DNA from: Eledone cirrhosa
Taxonomy: Eukaryota
DNA: 64,000 nucleotides
Assembly: GCA_964016885.1 (NCBI GenBank)
Contig: OZ024760.1
Location: 13,888,001 to 13,952,000 of the forward strand
Reading direction: 5' to 3'
The notes under the pieces are model-generated. The model was not told where the DNA came from. It did not search any database and was given only the letters and a program-made list of their open reading frames with translations. Each line of letters starts with the position of its first letter. Within the stretch, counting starts at the first letter, position 1. Position numbers and translations under genes: made by a program. Positions 15,201 to 58,236 of the stretch are shown in pieces.

Positions 15201-15204
<4 letters not shown>

Positions 15205-15604: not shown

Positions 15605-15606
<2 letters not shown>

Positions 15607-15710
15607 CCTGTTGATTTCTCCCGAATGAAACAGTTCTAGTCCTGTAGAAGCCATTTATATATCGAATATTTATACACTGCTATGTATTGAGTACCTTACT
15701 GTGGTTACCC
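15605..15710 (+). mobile_element. Family A hammerhead-bearing repeat (core mutated to CUGUUGA)
   Basis: ctgttga-tttctcccgaat-gaaa-cagttctagtcctg-ta-gaag...gtattgagtaccttactgtggttacc. Confidence 0.75.
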
Positions 15711-31592: not shown

Positions 31593-31758
31593 TATATATA
31601 TGTGTGTATGTGTGTATATATACATATGTGTGTATATATATGTATGTATGTATGTATGTGTGTATGTCTGTGCAAAAAGTAAACAGAAACAACAAAGCAA
31701 ACAACACAGTACAATGAAGAAATATATTAGTTTAACGCTTGATATAGTAGGAAGAGAG

Positions 31759-31794
31759 TCTTAACGTTTCGGTCACTAATCCTTCATCAGAAGA
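31759..31794 (-). ncRNA. Minimal type-I hammerhead ribozyme motif (family C)
   Basis: Minus strand tctt-CTGATGA-agg attagtga cc-GAAAC-GTT-aaga; palindromic aacgtt replaces stem III; element spans ~31670-31800. Confidence 0.7.
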
Positions 31795-31910
31795 TAGAAT
31801 GGGATGAAATAGAAAGATAAAGAAGGGGAAAGAATGGAGGGAATGTTTTTGAGAAAAAAAAAACTACATATATTCAGTCAGCCATTGAAGAAATATATAT
31901 ATACATGTAT

Positions 31911-32543: not shown

Positions 32544-32721
32544 AATGTATATATATACATGTATGTATATATATATATATACATGTATGTATATATATAT
32601 ATATACATGTATGTATATATATATATATACATATATACGTTATTCCGGGTTGAATCGGAGGTAACCACAGTAAGTAAGGTACTCAATACATAGCAGAGTA
32701 TAACAGTTTTAATATAGATGA

Positions 32722-32770
32722 GATTCTACAGGACTAGAACTGTTTCATTCATTAGAAATCATCAGGAATC
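32722..32770 (-). ncRNA. Type-I hammerhead ribozyme motif (family A, minus copy)
   Basis: gattc-CTGATGA-tttctaatgaat-GAAA-cag ttctagtc ctg-TA-gaatc. Confidence 0.75.
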
Positions 32771-32771
32771 A

Positions 32772-32824
32772 GAGATTCCTGATGATTTCTAATGAATGAA
32801 ACAGTTCTAGTCCTGTAGAATCTC
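32772..32824 (+). ncRNA. Type-I hammerhead ribozyme motif (family A), intact core
   Basis: Stem I gagattc/gaatctc (7 bp), CTGATGA 32779-85, stem II ttc/gaa, GAAA 32798-801, stem III cag/ctg, GUA site with predicted cleavage after 32817. Confidence 0.8.
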
Positions 32825-33015
32825 ATCTATATTAAAACTATATATACATATATATATATATCGCCAGTGACTCACATCAAACATACACACACAACCCATA
32901 AAAGCACACAATTCCCCACGCTGCTTCAATCAATAAATAAAACAAATCAGGTTTCCGGACCAGTGATATATCAATGCTTCTACACACACACACACACATA
33001 CATACACACACACAT

Positions 33016-33387: not shown

Positions 33388-33584
33388 TAACAACGGAATT
33401 GTGGTAAGGAACCAGTTGGACCAACACGCACCAGAGTACTCAATACTTAGTGTAGTAGAGTGGGAAATAGGAAAAAGTATGACCCCGACGGCAGAGCTCA
33501 AGCCGTTTCGACGGCTATTTCTGGACCAGAATAGCCGTCGAAAGGGCTTCAGCTCTGCCGTCGGGGTCATACTTTTTCCTATTT
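33388..33584 (-). mobile_element. Family B element with head-to-head inverted duplication
   Basis: Hairpin 33465-33584 centred near 33525; contains GAAAC-ggc-ttgagctct-gcc-GTC. Confidence 0.85.
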
Positions 33585-33640
33585 ATATATATATATCTGA
33601 TATGTTTTTATCAATGCCTCTTGTATCTATCTATAGATAG

Positions 33641-36584: not shown

Positions 36585-36657
36585 TTTATCCCGGGTTCAA
36601 TCGAGGCTAACCACAGTAAGTAAGGTACTCAATAGATAGCAGAGTATAAATATTTAA
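36585..36657 (-). mobile_element. Family A 3' fragment
   Basis: ccgggttcaatcgaggctaaccacagtaagtaaggtactcaata. Confidence 0.8.
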
Positions 36658-36672
36658 TTATATATATAAATA

Positions 36673-38194: not shown

Positions 38195-39243
38195 TAATGA
38201 AATGACAGGAGGCTGGACTTGTGTAAATCCTTGAAAGGTTTATTATACTATGATCATTTCAATGACCGGGTTCCGTATGAATCCGGTGATATCATCAGGT
38301 ATTCGAAATATAATAAGTGAATGTAATAGATAAAATCCATGGGGCTGTAAATCGAAGACCCGAGGACGACCGCCATCCAGCATCTTACACTTTTGCCAGT
38401 CGCCCTCGAGTGACGTGGCCAAAGCTTACAGTGTGCTACTACCGGTCAAATAAAAGAAAACAGAAAGAGATATACATACACCTTTGACGAGTTGTAGTGC
38501 ACCTGAGCACTTTACACAATAATTTCATTATTATTATTTTATAAGTCAGCGTTAATATCGTGCCACAAGAAAAAAGAAAGAAAGAAAGGAAGAAAGAAAG
38601 GAAGAGAGAAGGGAAAAGGAAGAAGAGAAGTCAGGGTTAAGGTGAGCTATAAGAAGAAAGACAGAAAGAGGAGGAAGGGTCGGTATTGGTCAGGCCAGGA
38701 ATGTCGCGAAACAAATGTTATTCTAAGGGACTCGTATCTTAACAACTACTACCGGTCAAATATAGGCAAACAAAAAGGGAGAGGAAAGTCAGCGTAAATA
38801 TCATGCCACAAGGAGAAAGACAGAAAGAAGGGGGAAGAGAAGAAGAAAAGGAAGAAGAGAAGTCAGGGTTGATGGCTACAAGAAGAAAGATAGAAAGAAA
38901 GAGGAAGAAAGGTCGATATTAATGTCAGACTACAGTCAGGCCAGGAATGGCGCGAAAAAAATATTTTCAAATGGACCCGTATCTTAGCAGAGGTAAATAT
39001 AGTGTGGGTCTGTATGTTATAATGTGTAAACCTTTGAAGGATTTACACAAGTCCAACCTCCTGTCATTTCATTATAATATTTAACTCCGTACTAGTACCA
39101 CCAACTACACAAACGAAGACGGTTGAACTGCTTTACGTTGAGTACTCTCCATAGTATTACATTAAGATTGACCATACGGAATTGACCAGCTCTATCCAGT
39201 GGTGAACCTCAAACCTGAATAAATATATGGCATGACACCCATA
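38189..39243 (-). mobile_element. Penelope-like remnant (family D) with inverted terminal repeat
   Basis: Inverted repeat 38189-38242 / 39027-39080, hammerhead just inside the left arm, internal duplication ~38545-38745 / 38787-38990. Confidence 0.65.
38245..38302 (-). ncRNA. Minimal type-I hammerhead ribozyme motif (family D)
   Basis: Minus strand atac-CTGATGA-tatcaccgg...ccggtcatt-GAAA-tgatca-TA-gtat; palindromic tgatca, AUA site. Confidence 0.75.
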
Positions 39244-39858: not shown

Positions 39859-39951
39859 TGTAGAATCTCATCTATATTAAAACTGTTATACTCTGCAATG
39901 TATTGAGTACCTTACTTACTGTGGTTACCTCCGATTCAACCCGGAATAACG
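39859..39951 (+). mobile_element. Family A copy beginning at the predicted cleavage site
   Basis: tgta|gaatctcatctatattaaaactg...ccggaataacg, near-identical to the reverse complement of 32639-32730. Confidence 0.85.
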
Positions 39952-39960
39952 TATATATAT

Positions 39961-52384: not shown

Positions 52385-58236
<5,852 letters not shown>

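Follow-up and report, generated by a model that had tools for sequence, protein, structure and literature searches.

The perfect hairpin at 32705-32839 of the window (the whole stretch analyzed, 64,000 nt of Eledone cirrhosa contig OZ024760.1, positions 13,888,001 to 13,952,000) is almost certainly a stub of a Penelope-like element (PLE), in which two copies of the hammerhead region stand head to head. Joins in related stubs across the genome point to the first base of hammerhead stem I as the probable 5' end of the parent RNA, and a double copying of that RNA from both ends of the cut target is moderately favored as the origin of the two arms.

Structure of the insertion

Arms 32705-32770 and 32774-32839 match as reverse complements without a mismatch over 66 bp around an AGA loop, as the preliminary description had stated. 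They belong to an uneven palindrome of approximately 200 bp, not recognized in that description, whose left arm extends to 32636 (Table 1). In a blastn comparison with an intact parent copy (L066), the long arm showed 99.3% identity across 138 nt, and its last TA is common to element and target. The short-arm end coincides with the 3' pLTR ends of full-length copies. The match to the parent and the intact 16-bp duplication bear out the earlier suggestion of a recent event. The stub is without the parent's TATA box. At the junction, the G at 32772 is absent from the parent and the base at 32771 appears untemplated. A tandem non-LTR retrozyme was rejected as an identity for the locus, which holds a single head-to-head unit and not a tandem head-to-tail array.

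Table 1. Features of the insertion and its hammerhead motifs (window coordinates)
Feature	Coordinates	Strand	Description
Whole insertion	32638..32838	.	Head-to-head stub pair of Hydra-clade PLE in (TA)n
Long arm	32636..32770	-	Parent +2 to +136, hammerhead and tail
One-sided tail	32636..32704	-	Parent +68 to +136
Short arm	32773..32839	+	Parent +1 to +67
Junction AGA	32771..32773	+	32773 is the parent's inferred +1 A
Target-site duplication, left copy	32622..32637	+	16 bp, interrupted TA repeat
Target-site duplication, right copy	32839..32854	+	16 bp
Type I hammerhead motif	32772-32824	+	7-bp stem I, U10.1-U11.1, predicted cut 32817/32818
Type I hammerhead motif	32722-32770	-	5-bp stem I, predicted cut after 32727

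The hairpin RNA was predicted to fold at -108 kcal/mol (z = -22; 0/200 shuffles as good), with both hammerhead motifs buried in the 66-bp duplex, so that the prediction supports the proposal that a read-through transcript would form long dsRNA. A miRNA precursor was rejected, the Rfam miRNA matches being microsatellite noise below threshold.

The plus-strand motif comprises the core CUGAUGA, a U-U followed by a 3-bp stem II, GAAA, a 4-bp stem III and a GUA site; the elements required of a type I hammerhead (core CUGANGA, GAAA, UH and three helices) are present, with U-U in place of the canonical G10.1-C11.1 pair. Its seventh stem I pair is indeed contributed by a loop base, as previously noted. 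The minus-strand motif retains the plus-strand core, but its stem I pair probability is ~0.16 versus 0.87-0.99 on the plus strand. The claim of an intact hammerhead on both strands thus stands as to the presence of both motifs but not as to their equality, the minus strand being weaker, with a shorter and poorly paired stem I. U-U closure was confirmed for the hairpin and for the motif at 38245, but not in full at 15201, where the minus strand has U-U beside GAAA with no preceding CUGA. The U10.1-U11.1 mispair is a known natural variant, with which cleavage is said to be higher than with other mispairs (PMC3088659), and U-U closure occurs in 14 of 26 Hydra rows, counted by eye, of a published hammerhead table (PMC8557442).

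The predicted fold of the hammerhead is weak, and the isolated motif folded no better than shuffled sequence (z -0.27 and 0.33). No hammerhead was matched in Rfam, either among the 9 matches of one scan or among the 150 listed of 443 in another. Among 21 distinct copies, two pairs of stem I change on both sides and 96.7% of 273 cells are paired, a pattern that suggests that the fold is under selection in the parent, although the independent events are few; no compensatory change was found in stems II and III of the same copies.

Several other features of the window are of related kind. Two uneven head-to-head hairpins of another family lie in (TA)n at 33400-33600 and 54916-55110; they are joined inside the hammerhead, the CUGA half of which is missing, and their tails have an 11-nt motif in common with the tail of the 32705-32839 family. 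By eye, a published Acropora Hydra element has a similar motif, making it a candidate protein-binding site. Four more stubs of the hairpin's own family, non-inverted and of differing ages, occur at 3810-3947 (-), 15606-15709 (+), 36586-36665 (-) and 39859-39956 (+). Hammerhead motifs were further noted at 31700-31830 (-), a type I motif whose stem II is closed by G-C and whose stem III is short and palindromic, as is typical of dimer-type PLE motifs, and at 38200-38300 (-), with U-U closure, a long stem II and a palindromic stem III. Approximately 4 kb at 54001-58000 are nearly pure AT (GC 3-5%).

Parent element and clade assignment

Unfolded (non-inverted) copies have a conserved upstream region in common, and at 70 places in the genome the long arm continues into an ORF, which starts ~130 nt after the hammerhead. 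An intact 758-codon frame was present at 6 of the 20 places fetched, with mutual identities of 98.1-99.4%. Each of the six intact copies is closed 4.8-6.0 kb downstream by a second, directly repeated hammerhead region (direct pLTRs), which stops at the short end in five and at the long end in one. The single parent ORF, of 713 aa, contains reverse transcriptase (RT) motifs and a C-terminal VY..YIG motif (GIY-YIG), as in EN+ PLEs. Searches of the parent ORF against Pfam returned nothing significant, GIY-YIG falling below the cut-off (E=0.13), as did a PDB sequence search.

Marks of the Hydra clade include RWR at position 38, DKT at 116 and a CxCx5C linker at 566, while a motif scan for G.K[FY] gave no GxKF/Y match. 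Translation and motif scan, with no profile, revealed no CCHH in the endonuclease, and CxxC and CxH near its end. The (TA)n target of the family is likewise a trait of the clade. The parent, at 4.8-6.0 kb owing to a microsatellite-rich 3' region, departs from the <3 kb length that is general, not strict, in the clade. Compared by eye, its protein resembles published Hydra proteins. By its motifs, set against published sequences by eye alone, the parent is a new family of Hydra-clade PLE.

Formation of the two arms

In the 40 hairpins fetched (the first 40 listed of 4,948 head-to-head pairs, all on one contig), 38 combined a long with a short arm, 2 had two short arms and none had two long arms. 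Alleles were compared between arms at 60 of the 64 loci with the exact AGA join. At +21 (counting from the first base of stem I as +1), 55 hairpins comprised 33 T/T, 21 A/A and 1 G/A; no mixed T/A pair was observed, against ~26 of 55 expected arithmetically from independent templates. Over the 60 loci, 30 arm differences were shared and 31 private. Of the 64 places, 30 had the +1 A on the long arm and 34 on the short arm.

These observations are read, with moderate confidence, as the products of two cDNAs, one primed from each end of the cut target and both copied from uncut RNA, that were joined at the RNA 5' end. The RNA would start at the first base of stem I, the hammerhead forming its first ~50 nt. 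The endonuclease would cut both (TA)n strands with a stagger, and the RT would start internally, at ~+57 to +67 for one target end and at +136 for the second, via TA microhomology. Both cDNAs would come from one RNA or source, one per target end, and would run off the capped RNA end, often adding C; their 3' ends would then be joined by microhomology or blunt joining. The two hammerheads and the dsRNA potential would be by-products of this double copying. A purified PLE protein has been reported to cut and extend both target strands, to use two internal RT starts that bound the tail, and to accept uncut RNA as template (PMC11167929). Against the two-cDNA route, the exact AGA join requires one untemplated base besides the G.

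Matching alleles could also be explained by fold-back, by conversion between arms, or by a single active master copy at a time. Fold-back of a single cDNA is a possible but doubtful origin: the cDNA would run off at the 5' end, prime itself and be copied back to a TA-rich site, and the loops would be flipped later. It directly explains both the matching alleles and the pairing of one long with one short arm, and self-priming has been proposed for palindromes at inverted PLE joins (PMC3846280). It is opposed by the short arms, which share end sites with ordinary non-inverted 3' ends. A further objection is the unpaired centre of 0-2 nt in 8 of the 40 hairpins, too tight for a priming loop. The 30:34 split, moreover, would need fast flipping in young copies with only 31 private differences over 60 loci. 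One flipped-loop pair does exist (L097/L125, G000:C5:43897038-43898457): two hairpins 1.3 kb apart form a large mirror image around a microsatellite, with identical flanks and opposite loops, the loop not being mirrored. Loops may therefore flip in DNA, which weakens the argument from the 30:34 split. As a further point against the two-cDNA reading, informative target duplications were present at only 10 of 47 loci (control 128 of 2,162), and this mirrored pair accounts for two of the 10.

Position of the joins and the RNA 5' end

The first 100 cores listed contained 27 head-to-head pairs within 12 kb, of which 15 had cores spaced by <=17 nt, 5 by 37-365 nt and 7 by 3.8-8.2 kb. The first base of stem I is where joins accumulate, and parent sequence beyond -1, one base before stem I, was found in 0 of 32 young-subfamily arms from the 40 fetched hairpins. 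A TATA box starts 30 nt upstream of this base in 44 of 56 parent-type copies, a tally that is partly circular as the script required TATA 20-30 nt upstream; the spacing is constant in young and old subfamilies despite their differing spacers. The base follows a pyrimidine pair and fits an initiator.

Among non-inverted copies, 207 matches had (TA)n followed by G or C at -1. By-eye counts at 90 places, drawn from the first 100 listed of these matches, gave 59 G and 31 C; the C is native and the G is absent from the parent. At a control site (+41), G occurred in 0 of 20 matches. In L1 insertions of full length, copying of the cap leaves an additional G at the 5' end (PMC11702581), and by analogy the extra G here may be a cap-like signature, although an untemplated C need not mean a cap. 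On this evidence the first base of stem I is probably the RNA 5' end (+1). With the RNA starting there, the G at 32772 would be a copying product, from the cap or from terminal transferase, and so, probably, is the seventh stem I pair which it makes and which the parent lacks. A TATA box ~30-33 nt before stem I was read by eye in only 2 of 5 published Hydra elements, which speaks against the start-site reading.

Neither a splice acceptor nor stopping of the RT at the base of the folded hammerhead is a likely source of the hot spot. The young parent carries a T-rich tract and CAG across the join point, and the intron of Drosophila virilis Penelope ends where helix I begins at its 5' side (PMC4209133). 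The stubs retain AG, however, often with the non-native G before it, and a G-start subfamily has no AG at the join point. The maintained TATA spacing across subfamilies and the predicted hammerhead fold of only -5.3 kcal/mol also argue against a splice or RT-stop origin. A literature search returned no account of a hammerhead at a PLE transcript start or of twin priming in PLEs, a result that does not establish absence from print.

Family scale in the genome

The young subfamily has 14,971 exact cores in the genome, and, with older subfamilies included, 4,948 head-to-head pairs have <=30 nt between cores. Joins varied among the first 50 pairs listed, and therefore form anew. A DNA search of the same genome gave 970 candidates; of 40 scored, 21 were exact over 76 nt, the window's own copy included. 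The idea of a special single-locus device was accordingly not upheld, the hairpin being routine debris of a PLE family, and a unique engineered switch was rejected.

The hairpin is very unlikely to be a non-autonomous element that propagates itself, or a dsRNA or ribozyme switch under selection. The identical AGA join recurs at 64 places, and read-through RNA would be a very stable duplex, as such a reading would have it. The AGA join is nevertheless found on several parent haplotypes with varied short-arm ends and makes up a small share of the 4,948 varied joins; furthermore, the TATA box is lost and the arms of older copies decay separately. An assembly or library fold-back artefact was rejected as barely credible: although a perfect palindrome sits between microsatellites and raw reads gave no depth on the unique flank 32832-32975, leaving the hairpin at the locus itself unconfirmed by them, the arms are unequal, the (TA)n flanks differ, a 16-bp duplication is present, similar loci number in the thousands with aged copies bearing private changes in each arm, and two other samples supplied 13 raw reads across position 32771 (11 with a different base, representing a related join).

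The cores are split unevenly by strand (8,804 versus 6,167), for which large tandem arrays are the probable cause. A tandem array of ~12 units of ~1.08 kb was noted (L062-L063, G000:C1:83679797-83691718), each unit containing the promoter region, hammerhead and tail of the hairpin's PLE family in a retrozyme-like arrangement. Stubs of different hammerhead families often lie in each other's TA flanks (L038, L049, L054, L176, L181, L183), so that every new stub seems to provide a fresh target for another.

Ribozyme cleavage and possible function

A footprint of ribozyme cutting was not found in the joins; 139 matches near the cut site were spread over microhomologies. The join at the cut site itself was the commonest (~10 places, by eye, among the first 100 matches listed), with 3-7 for each of the other microhomology types, and blunt-type starts occurred at 2 places, joins ending in TA being excluded by design. 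The few joins near the cut site follow microhomology, and the copied RNAs were therefore mostly uncut. This does not show a silent ribozyme, as a short cleaved RNA might simply escape copying.

With transcription starting where proposed, cleavage would release a capped piece of 45 nt and would not trim tandem precursors. It is suggested, tentatively and on the strength of DNA sequence, that the hammerhead may form the first 50 nt of a TATA-driven capped RNA and act as a self-decapping switch, with the stubs arising from one such RNA copied twice. Were this so, the hammerhead could not cut tandem precursors into unit RNAs; uncut RNA would serve as RT template while cut RNA would enter cap-independent translation or decay, and double copying from both target ends would explain why PLEs have an inverted pLTR and a tail on one side. 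A ribozyme that cuts within a 5' UTR can drive translation without a cap (PMC13725137), a possible function for the PLE hammerhead.

The earlier idea of a cleavable transcript starting at the loop holds in part: the parent likely makes one, but the hairpin stub has lost its TATA box. ADAR or Dicer action would be a putative by-product common to thousands of loci, and ~5,000 near-perfect hairpins could feed dsRNA pathways if read through.

Taken alone, the locus is ordinary retroelement debris in a published arrangement. What appears to be new is the inferred RNA start at stem I, the cap-like G and the rules for the arms, all derived from DNA alone. The family bears on the function of PLE hammerheads and on the origin of the inverted pLTR and tail, both regarded in the field as open questions (PMC8557442). 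Testable predictions follow from the joins: one precise start for the RNA, two sites at which the RT begins, and templates that are uncut.

Comparison with known systems

The head-to-head layout, the hammerheads on both strands and the U-U closure are already published for the Hydra clade; for Penelope-13_HM, for example, a 5'-truncated copy in inverted orientation is listed in which both strands carry a hammerhead (Craig et al. 2021, PMC8557442). Common to the hairpin's family and the Hydra-clade C-terminal EN+ PLEs of that study are RWR in place of RWK, DKT, the CxCx5C linker and the lack of GxKF/Y, along with the (TA)n target, a type I hammerhead often with U-U, and a one-sided tail. The family differs by eye from Hydra-1_Obim in its hammerhead, and from the clade in its unit length (4.8-6.0 kb versus <3 kb) and tail (~69 nt versus 30-40 nt). 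In excerpts of the same article, no hammerhead is placed at a transcript start and no thousands of ~200-bp stubs are described.

PLE hammerheads as catalogued by Cervera and de la Pena (2014, PMC4209133) are also type I motifs in the pLTR, and pairs on opposite strands 100-700 bp apart were reported there. Unlike those motifs, the present ones have a full 4-bp stem III and an 8-nt loop, and the two lie ~13 nt apart. The non-LTR retrozymes (bioRxiv 10.64898/2026.07.22.740005) are, like the hairpin, non-coding, hammerhead-bearing derivatives of PLEs; they form tandem head-to-tail repeats, whereas the hairpin is a dispersed head-to-head stub.

The inverted pLTRs of Adineta vaga Penelope elements (Arkhipova et al. 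2013, PMC3846280) share the head-to-head orientation, the palindrome at the join, the one-sided tail, the target duplication, and a pLTR with TATA and Inr. Those authors prefer self-priming with an antisense strand as template; the present data favor copying of sense, uncut RNA as far as its 5' end. The proposed route agrees with the in vitro behavior of PAc Poseidon (Frangieh et al. 2024, PMC11167929) in the cutting and extension of both strands, in two internal RT starts that bound the tail and in uncut RNA as the main template. That element belongs to another clade, inverted products are not modelled in the excerpted text, and its ORF starts inside the hammerhead, not ~130 nt after it. With L1 twin priming (PMC11702581) the proposed route shares a second RT event primed from the other target end and an extra G at full-length 5' joins; the L1 cDNAs cover adjacent parts of the RNA, whereas here the same part would be copied twice.
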